Shown in pieces: positions 32,782 through 45,413 of a stretch of 64,000 nucleotides of DNA. Under the pieces are notes generated by a model that was not told where the DNA came from, did no database searches, and saw nothing but the letters and a program-made list of their open reading frames with translations. Every line of letters begins with the position of its first letter. Positions within the stretch are counted from its first letter, which is position 1. Made by a program: the position numbers and the translations under genes. Origin of the DNA: Candidatus Cloacimonadales bacterium (GTDB lineage: Bacteria; Cloacimonadota; Cloacimonadia; Cloacimonadales; JAIOQZ01); contig OY771587.1 in the NCBI GenBank assembly GCA_963674825.1, positions 1,088,001 to 1,152,000 of the forward strand, written 5' to 3'.

Positions 32782-32866
32782 ACTGGCAAGTTTTTTCTGA
32801 TTGTCTCGTCCTGAAATTGTTGACCGTTTGGGCTAAGGAGGCACTATATTGGGGTTTCTTGAGCAG

Positions 32867-32895
32867 AAAAAAAGCCTGCCCCGAGTCGTGCAGGC
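32867..32895 (-). terminator. Probable terminator of the FG-GAP gene
   Basis: A7 then GCCTGC...GCAGGC stem on +, giving a hairpin plus U-tract on -. Confidence 0.55.
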
Positions 32896-33002
32896 CGGTT
32901 GACTTCCTTCGATTCTACTTCGCTCCCTTCCACACATACATCTCTTGTTGTCGTTGAGTTATATGAGTTTGTGAAAAGCCGAATTGCCTGGAGTTTGAGT
33001 GA

Positions 33003-35941: not shown

Positions 35942-36063
35942 TTTTTTCTCCTTTGCATCGCACGCAGTTTATACATGATCTGATCAGATTTTATAAGGTA
36001 TATACCTTTTCTGTCAATATCATTCTATCTCACAAGTCCGTCGGTGCTTGGGCAGAAATCCAA

Positions 36064-36099
36064 GCGTCCGTAAAGCTCTGCCAAGGGGGCATTTAATAG
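36064..36099 (+). repeat. Left copy of a degenerate direct repeat bounding the RiPP island
   Basis: GCGTCCGTAAAGCTCTGCCAAGGGGG-CATTTAATAG versus 43152-43190 GCATCTGTAAACTTCTGCCAAGGGGG-tgt-CATTTTATAG (22/26, then 9/10 identical). Confidence 0.55.
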
Positions 36100-36317
36100 G
36101 CAACCAGGAATTGGGTCGCACAGAAGGAGACTAACTCTAAATATACGTGGTCGTGGATGCGAATGGTTATCCGGTCTGCATTCTTGTTACGTCAGGTGCC
36201 AGAATGAGCGGAAAGGAATCGCGACACGATACGCCGAGAACGTATCGTCGTACATTGCAGCGGTAAAGATTCGATGCCTCTTCTTCTGGCTCAATATCTC
36301 GTGACGACACTCTTTAG
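36099..36317 (+). mobile_element. Degenerate, internally deleted IS5-family (IS427-like) transposase remnant with right end
   Basis: Fragments translate GNQELGRTEG / VVVDANGYPVCILVTSG and RKGIATRYAENVSSYIAAVKIRCLFFWLNIS*, followed by end-like TGACGACACTCTTTAG. Confidence 0.75.
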
Positions 36318-36326
36318 AAGTCATTC

Positions 36327-38339
36327 CTATATTGCAAGAACTGCTCGTATCTTGAGATAAAGCGTTTTATGATCGAGTTCCCAAGTATCATCATATCGAT
36401 CTGCTCCTGAGTTATACCCAGCATAGACAGTGACCTGATTATATACTTGCCAGGAAGCGTTGAAATAGACCCCGTAGTGACCCTTATATCTGCCTATTGA
36501 GTAGTTGTGATATCTCAATCCTGATGTGAAAAACAATGTTGAGAATAAATAATACGTAACATCAGAATTTGCTACATCATAGCTTGGATCGATACTCTGT
36601 GTTTCATCCTCAGAGATATCGTAGTATTTCTTCCTTGTCCAGGATGCACTCAAGCTGAAATCGGACCATAAATGTATTGAAGAAGCAACGTTGATGCTTG
36701 CCCATGGCTTAACCTGAGCAAGCCTATAAACCAATTCCTTTCCGCTGGATCCAGTCATCGCTATACGATCATTCACCCGAAACGTGTAGTTTAAGTTATA
36801 GTAAGCTGTGTACTGGGAATACAGTTCGTCCAGATAGTCTTCCTGGCTATTCGTATAGAAAATGTTATGTGAATAATGCTGTGAGTGTTCAATGCCGAAC
36901 TTACCACCATAATTGCTCGTTCGCAGTGAATTGGTATTGTTATAGTATGTTGCATTCACCCAGACACTTGTACTGGTTGTTTCGATTATCCCCTTGCTTT
37001 CTTTCTCGTAGGATAATTCCGCGTCATATCCAGAGTAATTCGTTTCGTAGATTCGTCCCAGTGAACTTACAAAATCGCGACCAATATAATATCCATCAAG
37101 AGACAGAGAGAAATCTCCAGCCCGTTGATAATATGAAGCTTCGGAATACAGGTCGAGCAACACGTCATTATCATCGTGTTGATAGCGCGATAAATAGCCA
37201 TCGATCGTCAGCCATTTTGTCGGAGATATATACCAGGTAGGTTTAAACTGCAGCACTTCATTATCTTCATCGTCCTGCATATTTGCTATAATGCTCGAGT
37301 GTAAATTGACTGACTTATACTTCGAAAGAAATGATGCCAGAAATACTTTACCGACCGAGTCCTCAATATCGTCATCGTCCTGTGCAACCAATATTCCATA
37401 GTTGTATGATGCGGAGCTATTGATATATTTCAGGGCCGCTACGGGTTGTAGGATAGTACGGCTATAATATACGGATGTGTCGATATCGAAAATACTGAGA
37501 TCGCTTACAAAGAAGTAGCGGTTTTCTTCATAGTAGGGGTTATATTCGAGGTTGAAGATATCCTGCTCACTGTCAGGAGGGATGTCAGAATAATCGGGGT
37601 TAACAGTAGCATTCAATGTCATATTCGGCTTGGGATGAAAGCAGAAATCAATCCCAAAGCTATTTTCATCCAAATCATTTTCTTCGCGCATCAAATCATA
37701 TTTATCAACGGCATACGGAAGTACTTGCCAATTCATCTGAGACGGGAGTTTCTCATCAATCACAATGGAGGCACCACTTTTAAAATAGTCTTTTTCCATG
37801 CTGATTGGCGCATAAGGAAACGAATACGCTTCTTTCAGCGTCTGATAATATCTCGTGAGAATAATTTGCCATTGATAAGGTGGAGAACCGCTATAACGAA
37901 GGTCTTTACATGGTATTCTCATTGTGCAATTCCAGGTCGAATCGCTGATGGTCGATTCGTACGTGTACTGACTGTCCCATTCTGTCGAAGAGCTCAAATC
38001 GCTGTTTCGAATACCATCATAATAGGATCCCGCAGGAAAAGCATAGAAGAAGTATGCATAGTAGTCTGATGGAGACGTGATGATTTGAACACGTGCATAA
38101 TCGGATGCAGCCCAACGGTCATCAGCAGTAAATGTACCGGGGCAAAATGTGGAATCGATTTCCATCACCCATTGAAATACTAGCGTTGCATCTTCGTACC
38201 TGACAGAGCATTTTGTTGCTTGAAATGCAGGCACCTGATCATCAGGAGAAACACGCAGGAATTGCTCTGTGTTTGCAATGAGTGCCCAAGCTGTTGAGCC
38301 AATAAGCAAGAACAACATGATTATCAAAACAGATTTCAT
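36327..38339 (-). CDS. DUF5916-like outer-membrane protein with an N-terminal CBM9/DOMON-like domain
   Basis: Signal peptide; W...MRIP..LRY; LNATVNPDYSDI..D...EENRYFF and YYSRTI motifs; C-terminal amphipathic strands ending LYLKIRAVLAI. Confidence 0.7.
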   Translation of the reverse strand: MKSVLIIMLFLLIGSTAWALIANTEQFLRVSPDDQVPAFQATKCSVRYEDATLVFQWVMEIDSTFCPGTFTADDRWAASDYARVQIITSPSDYYAYFFYAFPAGSYYDGIRNSDLSSSTEWDSQYTYESTISDSTWNCTMRIPCKDLRYSGSPPYQWQIILTRYYQTLKEAYSFPYAPISMEKDYFKSGASIVIDEKLPSQMNWQVLPYAVDKYDLMREENDLDENSFGIDFCFHPKPNMTLNATVNPDYSDIPPDSEQDIFNLEYNPYYEENRYFFVSDLSIFDIDTSVYYSRTILQPVAALKYINSSASYNYGILVAQDDDDIEDSVGKVFLASFLSKYKSVNLHSSIIANMQDDEDNEVLQFKPTWYISPTKWLTIDGYLSRYQHDDNDVLLDLYSEASYYQRAGDFSLSLDGYYIGRDFVSSLGRIYETNYSGYDAELSYEKESKGIIETTSTSVWVNATYYNNTNSLRTSNYGGKFGIEHSQHYSHNIFYTNSQEDYLDELYSQYTAYYNLNYTFRVNDRIAMTGSSGKELVYRLAQVKPWASINVASSIHLWSDFSLSASWTRKKYYDISEDETQSIDPSYDVANSDVTYYLFSTLFFTSGLRYHNYSIGRYKGHYGVYFNASWQVYNQVTVYAGYNSGADRYDDTWELDHKTLYLKIRAVLAI

Positions 38340-38349
38340 ATTAACTCCG

Positions 38350-39141
38350 TCAAGAAGTTGCGCTTTTGTAGTATCTTAACATAAAGCGTGTCGCACTGTA
38401 GGCAAGCGTAAGAAAAATGGCGCAACACAGGCATGCTGTTAGCAAAACAGACCTTGTCATCCCCTGTTTCAACGCAAGTAAAGGGAAGTTGCCGATAATG
38501 AGAACCGGAATGATATAGGTGAACAACCATTTTATCGCAGGCTGGGCGAAGATAACTCCAGGGAATGTTGAAAGAGTGAAAAAGGAAGTAAAAAGCGAAG
38601 TAAACGCGTCAAATTTGATGAAGATGATCGCGCCAAGATACAAAATGATGTGAAATGAAGTGAAGATCAAGAGAGCAAGTAGCAGCACGAGCAGATAGGT
38701 TGTTATATGCAGAAAATCAACGTGTATCTGAAACTGCTGCACAATGATAATGAAAAGCACGATATCGATCAGGAGTCTGCCGAGAGCCTTGAATCCCATT
38801 ATACTGCAGAACATCTGGAAATGCAGGTGGAGTGGCTTGATCAATAAATGATCCAATGTTCCATACTGCACTCTTTGAGGTAACTGAGAAATGTTTGAGC
38901 TGAAAAAGAGACCGTAGAAATCGTTGACCGTCTTGACTGTCAACACCAATATATAAAGGTCAAACAATGGAATACCCAGGCTTGATTTTATCTGAAAATA
39001 GAGAATCCGATAAAATACAAGCCCCAGAACCAATCCTACAATATCGAGTACCTGATCAAGAATGAAGTCCTTCGAGAAAAACATCATCCTTTTCCATCCA
39101 AGGCGATTCACCTGTAAGTAATATACAAAATGCCGGATCAT
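38350..39141 (-). CDS. ABC-2 family permease (DUF990/ABC2_membrane_6-like)
   Basis: VQYGTLDHLLIKP, FTYIIP, ending RYYKSATS; ATGA overlap with the upstream permease. Confidence 0.85.
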   Translation of the reverse strand: MIRHFVYYLQVNRLGWKRMMFFSKDFILDQVLDIVGLVLGLVFYRILYFQIKSSLGIPLFDLYILVLTVKTVNDFYGLFFSSNISQLPQRVQYGTLDHLLIKPLHLHFQMFCSIMGFKALGRLLIDIVLFIIIVQQFQIHVDFLHITTYLLVLLLALLIFTSFHIILYLGAIIFIKFDAFTSLFTSFFTLSTFPGVIFAQPAIKWLFTYIIPVLIIGNFPLLALKQGMTRSVLLTACLCCAIFLTLAYSATRFMLRYYKSATS

Positions 39142-39932
39142 CCTGTAGCCTCGTATTTCATTATTCCTTTTCTCCACGTGGTCGTAAGTGCAATCCACAC
39201 CACCAGTACCCAGAGCACTGCTTGTGATAGTAAAATGAGAAAATCTGGCCACGGCATGCTTCTGGTTAGAATACGGGCAGGATAGTAAACCAGATACGCT
39301 GGCGGCAAGCTTAGTAAAATAGTTCGGCAAACACCCGGAAAGATATCCAGCGGGAGAATGCTGCCCGTCATGAATGGCAAAAGTATGCTCAGCAGATTTT
39401 CAACAAACCGAATCTCAAGAAAAAAGAAAGCCAGAATCGACAGCCAGAAGATCAGAAGAAATGAGAGGATTGCCGCAACTACGCTCAATACAAGAAACTG
39501 AATCAAGCTTATGAAATCGATTGGAACCAAGAAGCTACCACGCACAACTACGTATGTTGCGTAGGTGATGATAATCGCAACGGATATAGATATGCTCTTT
39601 AGCGTATAATATACAGTGAAATTATGCCAGAAGTAACGATACGGCTTCAGTAAATGATTATTCAAGCCTCCATTTTTGATATCGTTTTTAATATCCCACC
39701 AGGTTGTGATCGAGAATGCCTCGCTCGTCACTCTTGCCAACAGAAAATAAGCAAGCAGTGATGAGAGCTCCCAAGAGCCAAGAGAAGAGCCATTCTGGTA
39801 AACAAAACGAACTAGCAGTAACTGTCCTAACAAGGGAATCAGGACAACGAGGAAGCTCAAGATGAAGTTTGTCCGATACGCCATGCCCTCTTTCAGGGTT
39901 TGTCTGGCCAGTCCATAGTAGTAGTTATTCAT
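39138..39932 (-). CDS. ABC-2 family permease (DUF990/ABC2_membrane_6-like)
   Basis: MAYRTNF, DIKNGGL..HLLKP, GSILPLDIFP, WRKGIMKYEATG. Confidence 0.85.
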   Translation of the reverse strand: MNNYYYGLARQTLKEGMAYRTNFILSFLVVLIPLLGQLLLVRFVYQNGSSLGSWELSSLLAYFLLARVTSEAFSITTWWDIKNDIKNGGLNNHLLKPYRYFWHNFTVYYTLKSISISVAIIITYATYVVVRGSFLVPIDFISLIQFLVLSVVAAILSFLLIFWLSILAFFFLEIRFVENLLSILLPFMTGSILPLDIFPGVCRTILLSLPPAYLVYYPARILTRSMPWPDFLILLSQAVLWVLVVWIALTTTWRKGIMKYEATG

Positions 39933-40878
39933 GACTCAAAATCTCGACAATGATATCTTCATTATCCTTTTTCTCGACCTTGAAATCGACAATGGCATGT
40001 TTGCCGACAATATCACAAATCGTAGGACTTGATGCATCTCCATCGAAATCCAGAACAACCATATTACCCGCAACGCGACCGTTATAGTCGGAAGCAATTT
40101 TCTGAGCTGTCATATGGGAGTCTGTGTGCAGAACAACCTTTTCATGGCTGTGTTTCTCGAGCAGATAGGCTGTGTCTCCTTGATAAAGAATCTTTCCCTT
40201 GTGCATGACAAGGCATGTATCGCAGCAATCCAGAATGTCCTTAACATTGTGGCTGCAGATAATAAAGCAGATTCCAAATTCCTCATGGCAGAAGTTTATA
40301 AACTTACGCAGGGAATCACGCGAAATTACATCAAGACCAGAGGTCGGTTCATCTAAGAACACTATCCGAGGCAGATGTATAAAGCTGTAGAGCAATTCCA
40401 TCTTTGTTCGTTGCCCAAGTGACATATTTCTCAGTGGTTGATGGATTTCATTAGTGATGTTCAGCGCTTCGCTGAAAATCCCGAGACGACGAACGAACTC
40501 TTCTTTACTGTATCCGTAAATGTGTCGTGACAGCTCGATGCTGTCGATCGCAGGAATATCCCAGATCAGTTGTCCTCTACCTCCCTGAAACAGGCCAATA
40601 TTCATTTTAAAATCTGTGACCAATTTCTGAGGAATAGAATCGAGAACCCGGATTGATCCCGCTGATGGATGCAGTATCCCGGTCAGCATCTTGATCAGCG
40701 TGGTCTTTCCTGCACCATTCTTGCCAAAAACACCAAGGTTTTTCTCAGCATTATGCGTAAAAGATATATCCGAGACAGCCTCAATCAATTTATATGTTGG
40801 CTTCCAGAATGATGATGATGTTTTTACTTTATAGACCTTGCTTAGAGCCTTTACTTCGATTGCGCTTGAACTTTCCAT
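39925..40878 (-). CDS. ABC transporter ATP-binding protein
   Basis: GKNGAGKTT, MSLGQR signature, FLDEPTSGLD; overlaps the rSAM stop. Confidence 0.92.
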   Translation of the reverse strand: MESSSAIEVKALSKVYKVKTSSSFWKPTYKLIEAVSDISFTHNAEKNLGVFGKNGAGKTTLIKMLTGILHPSAGSIRVLDSIPQKLVTDFKMNIGLFQGGRGQLIWDIPAIDSIELSRHIYGYSKEEFVRRLGIFSEALNITNEIHQPLRNMSLGQRTKMELLYSFIHLPRIVFLDEPTSGLDVISRDSLRKFINFCHEEFGICFIICSHNVKDILDCCDTCLVMHKGKILYQGDTAYLLEKHSHEKVVLHTDSHMTAQKIASDYNGRVAGNMVVLDFDGDASSPTICDIVGKHAIVDFKVEKKDNEDIIVEILSHE

Positions 40879-42113
40879 TTCATTACCTGGGGTAGAGCTT
40901 TTTCCAGCATTGGATGCATGCAGCCATTTTCAGCTTCTCCATTATGTTTCCCAAGCAAGCATCCGCCGTAGCATATGGGAAGATAACTGCATCTTTTGCA
41001 TGCTCCAGATATGTGTTTGTATAAATCATGCTTGATTTTCTGTGAAATTGCCTCATAACCATCTTCCAGATTGCCAACCGAAAACTTTTTGTCTCCAGTC
41101 ATGCTTATACATTTATAAATATCTCCGAAGCTGTCAACGACAAATTCATATCGCTTTTTATTTGAACACAGGTGAGTTTTAATAAAGTCTTCGTATTTTG
41201 TATCCTTCCCCTCAACAGGGATGTTGTTTCTTTGTACAAAGTCCATTTTTACTCTGGAGAATTCAGGATATGTAATAACCGTTGCGAGTTTATTTGTTTC
41301 ACCTGAACATATCTTCGCTACATAGAAATCATTGGGAGAGTATTTCATTATCACATGCTTATATACATAATCAAGACAGTGAACATTTCCGCTGTCGACA
41401 TTTACAGATATGTGTCGCGTAATGTCGTTTTCCACAAGAGAATCAAGGGATCTCATGATATTGTCATACGCCGACTCACCATTCTTCATCGGCCTCCGCT
41501 TATTATGCGTTTCCTTATCCCCATCTACCGTGATCAACACTTTTGCCATATTAACAGCCTTAAGGGCATTTAGCACTTCATCTTGATGAATTCGCACACC
41601 ATTTGACACCATCGTCGTCATTATCGTGGAAAAATGTTTCACAGCAATATTGTAAACATCGATCATTATCTGAGGAAACAAAGTCGGTTCGCCGCCATGG
41701 AACGAGAGGTGAATCACATCGATGCCGCTCTTTTCTCTGCATTGTTGCAGAAAAGCATCCAGGTTATCGAGCTGAGCGAATGATGTATAGCCTTGATACA
41801 TGCCGTGTTCATAACAGTAATAGCAATTGCAGTTACACATGTTCGTCACATGAATCGTCAGTGATATCTTATCCTCATTGCATAAGTGATCCTCAAATCG
41901 CTGGAGAGCTTCTTCAGATTCAGAATAATCATCATCAACAAAATCTTCGCACTCAACAAGCATTCGCATCTCATCATCGTCGAATCCCTTGCCTGTTTTC
42001 CATGAATCCTTGTCGATCGGCCTGTCGATTACAAGTAGAGACTTGTTCAGAGTATTAAAGATAATGGTGTTTTCACCTTCGTTGTATATTTTCGCAAAGT
42101 ATGATAATCTCAT
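40851..42113 (-). CDS. Radical SAM/SPASM-domain peptide maturase with probable N-terminal RRE
   Basis: CNCNCYYC (CxxxCxxC), FHGGEP, ITVDG..ETHNKRR; SPASM C...GDIYKC...CxxCx5Cx3Cx12C; N-terminal IIFNTLNKSLL RRE-like region; AGGAGG RBS before the ATG at 42113. Confidence 0.9.
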   Translation of the reverse strand: MRLSYFAKIYNEGENTIIFNTLNKSLLVIDRPIDKDSWKTGKGFDDDEMRMLVECEDFVDDDYSESEEALQRFEDHLCNEDKISLTIHVTNMCNCNCYYCYEHGMYQGYTSFAQLDNLDAFLQQCREKSGIDVIHLSFHGGEPTLFPQIMIDVYNIAVKHFSTIMTTMVSNGVRIHQDEVLNALKAVNMAKVLITVDGDKETHNKRRPMKNGESAYDNIMRSLDSLVENDITRHISVNVDSGNVHCLDYVYKHVIMKYSPNDFYVAKICSGETNKLATVITYPEFSRVKMDFVQRNNIPVEGKDTKYEDFIKTHLCSNKKRYEFVVDSFGDIYKCISMTGDKKFSVGNLEDGYEAISQKIKHDLYKHISGACKRCSYLPICYGGCLLGKHNGEAENGCMHPMLEKALPQVMKWKVQAQSK

Positions 42114-42164
42114 TTTTCCTCCTAACATTACATGAGCATGCGCACTTAAGGTCAAAGATGAACC

Positions 42165-42290
42165 CTAATACAGTGGCGGATCAGGATTTGGAATGGGTTT
42201 GGGATCCGGACAGCGCTGAGTCCTCTGGTTACATGATTCCAATGGAGTTTCATCAAATGCATTTTGCGGTTTCAAGATCATGGTAATCAT
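42165..42290 (-). CDS. RiPP precursor peptide 2 (41 aa; not in ORF track)
   Basis: MITMILKPQNAFDETPLESCNQRTQRCPDPKPIPNPDPPLY*; AGGAGG RBS; paralog of the adjacent peptide. Confidence 0.85.
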   Translation of the reverse strand: MITMILKPQNAFDETPLESCNQRTQRCPDPKPIPNPDPPLY

Positions 42291-42349
42291 TATTCCTCCT
42301 TTTGTCCTGCAATCTAACTGAGATGCAGGGCTTGCGTTAGTTAGTCACA

Positions 42350-42478
42350 CTAGATTTTGGGCAGTTCTGGATCTGGATCTGGTACTGGCGGTGGGGGGCA
42401 CCGGTGGGTGCGCTGGTTGCAAGAATCCAGTGGTGTCTCGTCAAATGCGTTCTGTGGTTTCAAGATCATAGTAATCAT
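42350..42478 (-). CDS. RiPP precursor peptide 1 (42 aa)
   Basis: MITMILKPQNAFDETPLDSCNQRTHRCPPPPVPDPDPELPKI*; AGGAGG RBS. Confidence 0.85.
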   Translation of the reverse strand: MITMILKPQNAFDETPLDSCNQRTHRCPPPPVPDPDPELPKI

Positions 42479-42516
42479 TGTTCCTCCTAAAGAATTACAA
42501 GTGCGCATGCTTCTTG

Positions 42517-42545
42517 AATATTTATATTTCAAAATTGAATGTCAA
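42517..42545 (-). promoter_or_regulatory. Putative sigma70-type promoter of the RiPP operon
   Basis: TTGACA (42545-42540) followed by AT-rich TATAAATATT -10-like region. Confidence 0.5.
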
Positions 42546-43436: not shown

Positions 43437-45413
43437 ATGAGAGATTATTATGATGCGCTTGATGAAATCATGGACTATGCAGTAGACGCCGATAGAGAGC
43501 CATCAGCAAACAGCAAACTCAAGATTAACGCAAAAGATTTCTACGATGGATTGTACGTTAGAAGGCGAAATGAAGAAGCTAAGATAATTGACCTACTGAA
43601 AGAAGCCCATATGATCCATGTTATCGGTGAGCGTGGAAGTGGAAAATCATCTCTCTTAAACGCATTGCCGCGATTATATCAGACAAGGAAAAGTCCTCAT
43701 GGCAATCTTCTATTTTTGCTTTTTGATTTTTTCAGCAACAGAAAACACCAGGAAGCAGTTCACAAATCATTAACCGGCGGAATAGAATTACTAGAAAATG
43801 AAATTAAAGCAGACTTTACCGAAAAATATAAAAAATTATCCCTGCGGATAGTCAAACACTATGGGAATTTGCTACAGAAACCAGAGCCCGAAAATCATAT
43901 GCCAAGTTCAGCTTTTACTGAAAGATACACAGACAGGTATGACCTATTATCCAACGAAGAGAATAAGGCGCTAAAACATTTAGATTTACTGGATATAGGC
44001 CAGTATTGCCATAAAAAACACAATCAGAAAATAATTATTATTCTAGACAATTTTGACTCATGTTATCTCGATCGGATTTTCAACTATGAAGCCATTACCA
44101 GCTTCATGGAAATCCTACACAAACGCTTGCCCACATATAAAGGGCTAATCAGGTTCATTGTTGCGATCCGACATGATATATACCACGAATCTTTTACCAA
44201 GCCAGCACGTCTTAACCAACCAGGTCATGGAACAATGATAAAAAACAGACTCTTTTCCCTTGACTATACCGACTTATTAACGTATCTGGATGTAAAAAAA
44301 GAGATTGAAAAAAGTATAGCCACTGCTATCAGTATTGGTCATACCGAATGGGAGTCCCTTCAAGAAACTTTTCAGGATATGGCCCTACAAAAGTTCGAGA
44401 GATCCATTGCTTGGAATAGAAAAAACTACCTTGAGAAATACGCTAACCAATTGTGCAATAGAGATCCTAAATATGATCGCATTATTAACATGGCAGAAGA
44501 AAGCTACGCAATAACAGCTACATTGAATGGTTATTTTAACTATGATAGAAGAAAATCAAGCAAAGCCAGAAGACAATTTTGTTCTTACACAAGAATCAAT
44601 TACAAGCAAAGACTATACATTTTATCAAGACAAGAGATTGAGACGATTTTCTTCAGATGGTTTATCACAAACCATGCTATTGGTTACGATACAAGCACCT
44701 GTGATATTGTTGGCGAACTCACAACTGAATCTAATGGTCGAATATTATGCAATCTTGGCTTCATGCTTTCAGTATATCTTAATAACCATAGAAAACTCGG
44801 GAACACGCTAACCGGTATTAATGCATCAAAAATCATTCGAGTGTTCAGAAAGTTTGGCTATCCTGCCCAAGACGTGATTAATACACTAGTGTTTTTTCAC
44901 GATCACGCATATATCAATACAAGTAAGAACTATAGGGCTAAAGGCCGAACTGGAAAAGAAGACTACCTCATCCATCCGCAACCCAAATTACTGATCAATA
45001 TAGTAGGCCTTATACAGAAGTACACATATATGATTACACGCATAGCTCAAGAAAACAACTTCTCCGTGACCATTGATGATATAATGAGCAAAACAAATAT
45101 TGAACGGGTAATTTCTTTCGTAAGTAAAATGAGCATTGAGCACATTTCCGCATTGAAATCGATGATCAACAACAAGAAATCCGGATCTTCCATGAAAACA
45201 TACCTTGAAGAATTCTCATACAGAAATTCACTGAATGAAGCCGCCTTTTCAAATCAAAGTATTGAATGGAAAATAGGAAATTTACTGTTGCCAAGACTAA
45301 TCAGGGATCACATATCATATCTTGAGACTAATGATATCAGTGAAACCTATATCAAAAAGTACAAGGAAATCAATCGTAATTTCAAAAAGGAGGTAATCGA
45401 GATTTATGGATGA
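43437..45413 (+). CDS. P-loop NTPase (STAND/KAP-like) hypothetical protein
   Basis: Walker A GERGSGKS, Walker B IIIILDNFD, FIVAIR sensor-like strand; AT-rich. Confidence 0.75.
   Translation: MRDYYDALDEIMDYAVDADREPSANSKLKINAKDFYDGLYVRRRNEEAKIIDLLKEAHMIHVIGERGSGKSSLLNALPRLYQTRKSPHGNLLFLLFDFFSNRKHQEAVHKSLTGGIELLENEIKADFTEKYKKLSLRIVKHYGNLLQKPEPENHMPSSAFTERYTDRYDLLSNEENKALKHLDLLDIGQYCHKKHNQKIIIILDNFDSCYLDRIFNYEAITSFMEILHKRLPTYKGLIRFIVAIRHDIYHESFTKPARLNQPGHGTMIKNRLFSLDYTDLLTYLDVKKEIEKSIATAISIGHTEWESLQETFQDMALQKFERSIAWNRKNYLEKYANQLCNRDPKYDRIINMAEESYAITATLNGYFNYDRRKSSKARRQFCSYTRINYKQRLYILSRQEIETIFFRWFITNHAIGYDTSTCDIVGELTTESNGRILCNLGFMLSVYLNNHRKLGNTLTGINASKIIRVFRKFGYPAQDVINTLVFFHDHAYINTSKNYRAKGRTGKEDYLIHPQPKLLINIVGLIQKYTYMITRIAQENNFSVTIDDIMSKTNIERVISFVSKMSIEHISALKSMINNKKSGSSMKTYLEEFSYRNSLNEAAFSNQSIEWKIGNLLLPRLIRDHISYLETNDISETYIKKYKEINRNFKKEVIEIYG

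Follow-up and report, generated by a model that had tools for sequence, protein, structure and literature searches.

We analysed a window of 64,000 nucleotides from a Candidatus Cloacimonadales bacterium. Two short paralogous genes, A and B, lie on its minus strand ahead of genes for a radical SAM/SPASM enzyme, an ABC-type transporter and a DUF5916-like protein (Table 1).

Table 1. Features of the locus, in window coordinates
Feature	Position	Strand	Description
Promoter-like site	42517-42545	minus	Perfect -35, 17-nt spacer, 4/6 at -10
5' arm of long-range inverted repeat	42499-42511	minus	13 perfect bp, extendable to about 24 with mismatches
RBS of gene A	42483-42488	minus	AGGAGG
Precursor gene A	42350-42478	minus	42 aa ORF; hydrophobic N-terminal strand, acidic linker, core C20-x2-R-T-x-R-C27-P-x-P, Pro-rich tail
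Local hairpin between A and B	42306-42329	minus	9 bp with bulge, -9.1 kcal/mol
RBS of gene B	42295-42300	minus	AGGAGG
Precursor gene B	42165-42290	minus	41 aa ORF, paralog of A
3' arm of long-range inverted repeat	42135-42147	minus	Between the stop codon of B and the enzyme RBS
RBS of radical SAM enzyme	42118-42123	minus	AGGAGG; enzyme ATG at 42113
Radical SAM/SPASM maturase	40851-42113	minus	420 aa, Pfam Radical_SAM match
ABC ATPase	39925-40878	minus	317 aa, without peptidase domain
ABC-2 permease	39138-39932	minus	264 aa, PF06182
Second ABC-2 permease	38350-39330	minus	PF06182; real start probably near 39141, because orthologs are about 263 aa
DUF5916-like protein	36327-38339	minus	670 aa; predicted signal helix, beta-sandwich domain and large outer-membrane beta-barrel

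Precursor genes and selection on the peptide

The small genes show clear selection at the codon level. Over the first 28 codons A and B share 11 identical codons and differ at 15 synonymous and 2 non-synonymous ones (D/E18, H/Q25), a count that bears out the original prediction of 26 identical residues in 28, 15 of them through different codons. The copies differ at 18 of 84 bases, and 16 of the 18 differences fall in third positions (binomial p 1.7e-6). The dN/dS-type comparison that had been suggested as a check gave a pN of 0.047 against a pS of 0.87 over these codons (Fisher p about 1e-11), far beyond chance, so that the claimed purifying selection on the peptide rather than on the DNA is upheld. 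Each of the other five frames contains a stop in at least one of the two copies. The ribosome-binding site ascribed to each small gene is present, AGGAGG lying 4 nt 5' of the ATG of A, B and the enzyme gene alike. No further paralogs of the peptides or the enzyme were found in the window's genome.

A hairpin had also been noticed between the two genes. It exists and stops 5 nt before the gene B RBS, but its stability is modest, with z at -2.15 in a 36-nt window and at -0.85 across the full spacer, and the stronger conserved structure is the long-range stem around both genes. The hairpin was rejected as a terminator, as it has no U-tract and the terminator scan returned 0 sites.

A narrow peptide family with a conserved core

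Seven distinct peptides of the family align over 30 columns without a gap. Residues M1, I2, I5, E14, C20, R23, T24, R26, C27, P28 and P30 are invariant in all seven, position 18 is always D or E, and the core C-x-x-R-T-x-R-C-P-x-P sits at a fixed distance from Met1. Mean identity among six peptides (not counting the A/B pair, and omitting L018, which nearly copies L016) came to 0.61 over residues 1-7, 0.35 over 8-17, 0.81 over 20-28 and 0.37 over the tail. The core is thus the family signature, being its most conserved part, and the bis-Cys core of the original prediction is confirmed, with both Cys invariant beside the invariant Arg, Thr and Pro residues. The proposed leader stands in part: residues 1-7 and E14 are conserved family-wide, but the remainder varies. 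The tails are as variable as had been thought, with 7 of 39 bases identical between A and B in an ungapped comparison, but their richness in Pro does not extend to the whole family. Six peptides have 7-9 Pro in the tail, in runs reaching six residues C-terminal to the core, and the seventh (L003) has 3 in 12 residues, a third Cys and no long Pro run. No aromatic residue of the core is invariant among the seven, and the peptide is hydrophilic. NCBIfam and Pfam models matched neither peptide A nor peptide B.

Residues 2-17 of A and B show zero changes at a pS of 0.8, while 4 of these 16 residues differ between G058 and L017 at a pS of 0.39. The numbers are small, but the contrast suggests from sequence that the leader may be tuned to its own enzyme.

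The family is rare. Enzyme orthologs occur in 5 of 232 genomes of the phylum, the window's own included, and the peptide profile matches 3 of the 232. Genomes G058 and G109 have the five-gene order of the window, with one precursor each. A homologous peptide lies directly upstream of an orthologous enzyme in two genome loci (L002, L003) and in four metagenome contigs (L015-L018). A DNA pattern scan of genome contigs picked up the peptides of G058 and G109 again, in Candidatus Syntrophosphaera thermopropionivorans (L014) and in a Candidatus Cloacimonadales bacterium (L011); the other 3 of its 5 matches (L010, L012, L013) were dismissed as chance, with no operon gene nearby and no fitting ORF.

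A metagenome search, another check that had been proposed, recovered homologous peptides beside homologous enzymes in the four contigs. Among the best 80 of 208 metagenome enzyme relatives, 5 are at least 33% identical to the enzyme; the 4 of these with upstream DNA all carry a precursor (E 2e-23 to 3e-17), and the fifth locus is cut. The other 75 of the best 80, which encode distant enzymes, gave no peptide match (next best E 2.6). The original prediction had named a lack of expression together with a lack of homologous peptides beside homologous radical SAM genes as grounds for giving it up. Since homologous peptides do adjoin homologous enzymes, the identity of A and B as precursor peptides is supported.

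Only 3 matches to the peptide profile were found among 1.84 billion representatives, and the peptide family is therefore narrow. With the enzyme alone as query, genome contigs yielded 13 pattern matches, none of them related; viral contigs yielded 114 pattern matches, none confirmed, and plasmids 10 records with enzymes only 25-28% identical. The peptides apparently constitute an undescribed family of modified bacterial peptides.

The radical SAM/SPASM enzyme

The enzyme has a CxxxCxxC motif at residues 93/97/100 and a seven-Cys SPASM motif at 316-398 with all seven Cys conserved; the Pfam SPASM model gave no match to it. In the structural model (pLDDT 91.5, from 65 sequences) the N-terminus consists of three strands and helices. 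Its topology and the match to CteB, a thioether synthase, predict an RRE-like, leader-binding domain. CteB is the top match in the PDB by sequence and also by fold (TM 0.63, 18% identity), with anSME nearly as good in fold.

No NCBIfam cut-off was reached. The best-scoring families gave 99-137 bits, among them the geopeptide maturase TIGR04280 (136.9 against a cut-off of 400), CefB NF038107 (118.9 against 600) and Clo7bot TIGR04334 (111.2 against 600); NF047865 gave 94 against 340 and TIGR03974 68.6 against 425. Several of the best-scoring models describe maturases of Cys-rich peptides. An atlas search with the enzyme returned only generic radical SAM clusters. In a quick tree, nine close enzyme sequences form one clade on a long branch (0.79, SH-aLRT 99). 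That the peptides represent a new precursor family for this distinct radical SAM/SPASM clade is real and well supported.

Six catalytic-proximity positions defined on CteB (in the available part of PMC10288494) were mapped onto the enzyme. They read Y-H-V-T-I-S in all seven full-length sequences of the clade and F-F-T-S-H-Q in CteB, as given in the same part of PMC10288494. An extra Cys upstream of the SPASM motif is present in 9 of 9 clade sequences and in 38 of 56 others, though not at one alignment column. In CteB one site at the auxiliary cluster stays free for a substrate Cys (as described in the available text of PMC8172795); the extra Cys could occupy it.

Operon partners and genomic context

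Searched against 5 close relatives (three of the same genus, two of the same family), the stretch at about 36.1-45.6 kb matched none at the DNA level, and its GC content is about 0.37-0.43 against 0.496 for the genome; it is therefore an accessory island. Of the 232 phylum genomes, 8 carry the first permease. DUF5916 clusters match the 670-aa protein at 0.97-0.98, and it is modelled as a large beta-barrel that resembles outer-membrane transporters in a generic way (TM no higher than 0.38). We rejected the barrel as a dedicated part of the system, since the family is too widespread: it occurs in 141 of 232 phylum genomes beside varied neighbours, with a radical SAM gene upstream in only 3 of 20 other barrel loci examined. 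No paper on DUF5916 under that name turned up in the literature searched. No peptidase domain was found in the proteins of the operon.

Parts of the island come and go separately. In G007 and G009 the transporter and barrel genes are intact and the enzyme is reduced to a 3' remnant, and G105 is without the enzyme; in these three loci (L104:7700-8043, L008:5854-6354 and L105:7626-8600) transporter and barrel are kept without the precursor and with most or all of the enzyme gone. That these genes persist where biosynthesis is lost would suit protection or uptake no less than export. The loci of G005 and G024 end at contig breaks. In G107 and G110 a different enzyme, peptide and ABC protein lie between flanks 93-97% identical to those of G109.

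Several neighbouring arrangements were recorded in passing. The sister genomes of G109 carry another radical SAM enzyme with a different 41-aa two-Cys peptide downstream (L155:3975-5407, L156:4156-5643), in a slot between an ECF sigma-like gene and the barrel, where the ABC protein is single-chain. The low-GC island of the window also holds, on the opposite strand at 43437-45413, a gene for a 658-aa STAND-type NTPase (PF20703), likewise with no DNA match in the 5 close relatives searched. Two FG-GAP repeat genes, which lie elsewhere in G115, are flanked in the window by short elements at 32840-32944 and 36025-36100; the elements have copies at several sites in genomes of the same genus and are possibly small mobile repeats. 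Another candidate for a peptide-modification cluster that includes a DUF5916-like barrel is L075:5953-11541, where two radical SAM genes lie in a row with a methyltransferase-like ORF, a DUF5916-like gene and an ABC-like gene; in G227 (L143:292-6551) a radical SAM gene, an ABC gene and a barrel gene stand together with no precursor spotted.

A predicted long-range stem around the precursor genes

The most unusual part of the system is the inverted repeat that encloses both A and B. The 13-mer of its arm occurs once per strand in the whole genome, and the 5' arm starts 5-6 nt past the -10 box of the promoter-like site. That site matches the consensus only, the promoter scan having found 5 sites against 4.9 expected in shuffles, and its predicted transcription start lies near 42511. 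No -10-like box was found at the same place in the five other loci scanned. The spacers upstream and downstream of the precursor pair with each other in 6 of 6 loci (z -4.1 to -6.5), with at most 1 of 1000 shuffles as strong; the six loci amount to three lineages, as L002, L016, L017 and L018 are closely related. From lineage to lineage the arms, which carry bulges, have different sequences; what is conserved is their complementarity. Cross-pairing among the window, G058 and G109 reaches -9 to -21 kcal/mol, compared with -22 to -38 for each locus's own pair. The 3' arm of the window pairs fairly well with the 5' arms of L017 (-27.5) and L018 (-24.4), which suggests that these arms share descent with those of the window.

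As background, an exact 13-bp match was found around 0 of 1500 genome genes and one of at least 10 bp around 11; pairing as strong as the stem was seen for 92 of 1500 genes without GC matching and for 0 of 386 at a GC content under 0.42. Automatic alignments misplace the arms of divergent loci. In three close sequences 2 of 21 pairs are compensatory, which is not significant (53 of 500 shuffles). In the predicted fold of the transcript the arms are paired with a probability of about 0.98. Rfam gave no accepted match on three loci, the single one (E 0.57) lying elsewhere.

Bracketing pairing was also seen at 3 of 10 other putative precursors (L022, L032, L033). In L031 and L045, also among the ten, the first precursor was negative, but a second one lies within a perfect 14-15-bp repeat, and at L047, L069, L074, L155 and L156 no bracketing pairing of the precursors was seen. 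A bracketing stem thus appears in four unrelated precursor families, that of the window and three others. An ungapped scan across the class, from which scores and 5' arms were used, gave 4 of 58 enzyme loci against 20 of 259, no enrichment, although it scored the family's own bulged stems below threshold; as a general feature of all radical SAM loci the stem is unsupported. The four top-scoring of the 58 loci in this unbiased scan all enclosed a small precursor-like gene.

The other stem-bearing loci deserve a separate record. At L031:5206-5587 and L045:5211-5591 a radical SAM gene is preceded by an unrelated pair of duplicated precursor-like genes, each encoding two Cys. L022:670-861, L033:5580-5756 and L032:371-631 belong to two further precursor-like families, in which arms of 12-15 bp enclose the gene. 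The arms of L022 and L033 have different sequences yet stay complementary, and at both loci a -10-like box precedes the 5' arm.

A role of the stem in the stability or processing of the RNA seems to us rather probable, although the few compensatory pairs, the lack of a consistent sense-strand advantage, the unenriched class-wide scan and the 92 genes that pair as strongly without GC matching weigh against it. We favour the reading in which a precursor-only message would be stabilised or processed by RNase III, a gene for which is present in the genome. The repeat might instead work as DNA, as the ends of an exchangeable or invertible cassette or as two regulator sites. Strand asymmetry does not settle this, because the sense strand has no consistent energy advantage (the antisense is stronger in 2 of 5), a point that leaves room for a role as DNA. 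The locus is moreover an island whose peptide and enzyme sets are swapped between sister genomes, and homology among L002, L016, L017 and L018 begins near the 5' arm. Nevertheless, a role as DNA appears improbable: bulged arms that differ in sequence between lineages speak against it, the precursor orientation is identical in all loci seen, no recombinase gene was recognised among the neighbouring ORFs scanned, and where a locus has been swapped or has decayed, the loss reaches past the 3' arm to include the enzyme. If the stem is RNA, it might still silence the full-length message until processing, in the manner of the 5'-3' long-distance interaction of type I toxin mRNAs described for aapA mRNAs (available text of PMC6733600). 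The duplex can extend over the gene A RBS in the window, as such silencing would require, but in the five other loci it ends 17-32 nt before the ATG. With the 3' arm present the gene A RBS is also predicted to be more accessible (0.47 unpaired, against 0.23 when the arm is absent), and a hydrophilic peptide is no membrane toxin, making this quite unlikely.

Proposed model and alternatives

That A and B are substrates of the adjacent enzyme we hold with high confidence. The wider picture we regard as probable: a new Cloacimonadota RiPP family, most likely cross-linked through Cys thioethers and exported, its mRNA clamped so as to favour the precursor over the enzyme. A and B would be paralogous RiPP precursors that bind the enzyme's RRE-like domain through the hydrophobic strand of residues 1-7, and a linker of fixed length would position the invariant core in the active site. 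The enzyme would then most likely form thioether rings, linking the sulfur of one Cys or of both to a carbon of an invariant residue close by, with T24 as the first candidate. The ABC-2 transporter would move the product across the inner membrane, presumably outward, or protect the cell, or both, and the barrel may carry the product across the outer membrane; leader removal, if any, would require a host protease. On the mRNA, the 5' arm would pair with the 3' arm just past the last precursor stop codon and close the precursor genes into a protected unit, perhaps freed by RNase III, so that precursor message would exceed enzyme message.

On the chemistry we lean slightly towards thioethers. Two invariant Cys, CteB as the nearest structure and maturases of Cys-rich peptides among the nearest profiles argue for them, and the invariance of both Cys together with the lack of an invariant aromatic residue argues against cyclophane chemistry of the triceptide, darobactin or streptide kind. 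The active-site signature unlike that of CteB, the extra Cys that may ligate the auxiliary cluster fully, and the near-equal fold match to anSME count against thioethers, and Arg/Thr-directed or other chemistry is a real if lesser prospect. In one such version of the same precursor-enzyme pair, which we consider fairly unlikely, the Cys would form a disulfide or bind a metal and the enzyme would act on R23-T24-x-R26, forming a Thr ether or a cross-link at an Arg carbon, epimerising a residue or carrying out some reaction not yet seen. R23, T24 and R26 are as invariant as the Cys, the signature is fixed within the clade, and Thr-ether and Arg-carbon cross-links made by radical SAM enzymes are on record (TqqB, RrrB; available text of PMC9389541). 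However, the invariant Arg and Thr may just as well accept the thioether or bind a receptor, and the profiles of Cys-rich-peptide maturases again point away from this version. Polyproline stalls ribosomes, and the runs of up to six Pro after the core raise the thought that the peptides, although real, are no substrates at all, for example regulatory leader peptides, and that the enzyme acts elsewhere. This is very improbable given the invariant Cys-Arg-Thr core, the RRE-like domain, the strict co-occurrence with one enzyme clade, the joint loss with the enzyme and the homolog that has no long Pro run. A bolder combination, which we find doubtful, would make the clamp a recurring undescribed device of radical SAM RiPP operons that sets the precursor:enzyme ratio and at the same time have the clade make an unknown cross-link on C-x-x-R-T-x-R-C.

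The locus offers a compact enzyme-substrate pair from a mostly uncultured phylum that can be tested heterologously, with seven natural substrate variants, and the active-site signature adds to its value. Comparing the A/B paralogs tells apart the part that the enzyme needs, residues 1-17, which are identical although silent sites are saturated, and the tail, which may vary. Should the stem have its predicted function, it would explain how substrate is overproduced relative to enzyme within one operon and would provide a sequence-independent signal for finding hidden precursor genes.

Comparison with known systems

In the literature searched, which covered few subscription journals, we found nothing on the peptide family or on stems enclosing RiPP precursor genes, and no characterised RiPP from the mostly uncultured Cloacimonadota; cloacimonad names are mentioned twice in PMC10659378. 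The list of sacti- and ranthipeptides in PMC10288494 (the 3,422-row sheet) contains RTQR, TQRC and CPEP 0 times and CPPP once, in an unrelated entry, against 675 for the control.

The closest characterised counterpart is CteA/CteB, the thermocellin/SCIFF ranthipeptide system. The two systems share an enzyme of RRE, radical SAM and SPASM parts, a precursor directly upstream, a short hydrophobic N-terminal strand and a Cys-containing core. In contrast to CteB, the enzyme differs at all six catalytic-proximity positions; the peptides have two Cys and a Pro-rich tail where CteA/SCIFF has six Cys, and the operon adds an ABC-2 exporter and an outer-membrane barrel. Neither the six-Cys SCIFF core nor a C-x3-D/E motif, the spacing of PapB, is present, as the residue at C20+4 is Thr and that at C27+4 is variable. 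The geopeptide, CefB and Clo7bot families and TIGR04463 are the nearest profiles; they are uncharacterised, and the enzyme lies far below their cut-offs (400-600).

The NxxC, QMP/GGG (type 2 sactipeptide) and TQQ RaS-RiPPs of streptococci carry small un-nested rings, or Thr cross-links, on short cores that contain one or two Cys (available text of PMC9389541), and T24-x-x-C27 of the core has NxxC-like spacing. These systems differ in phylum, transporter and core motif, and the comparison stands apart from any shown sequence relation of the enzymes. As in SRPS operons, RNA structure would set stoichiometry within the operon; SRPS uses local 3' stem-loops in the accounts available, while here the arms lie 160-350 nt apart and enclose whole genes. 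As in type I toxin mRNAs, pairing spans a whole small ORF, but those sequester the Shine-Dalgarno (PMC6733600, in its available text) and the RBS here is predicted to lie mostly outside the duplex. The locus has the general attributes of a radical SAM RiPP system, with a small conserved precursor ORF beside an enzyme that carries CxxxCxxC, the SPASM Cys and an RRE-like N-terminus. The system would work like a ranthipeptide or sactipeptide system but falls outside each named family on the criteria tested.
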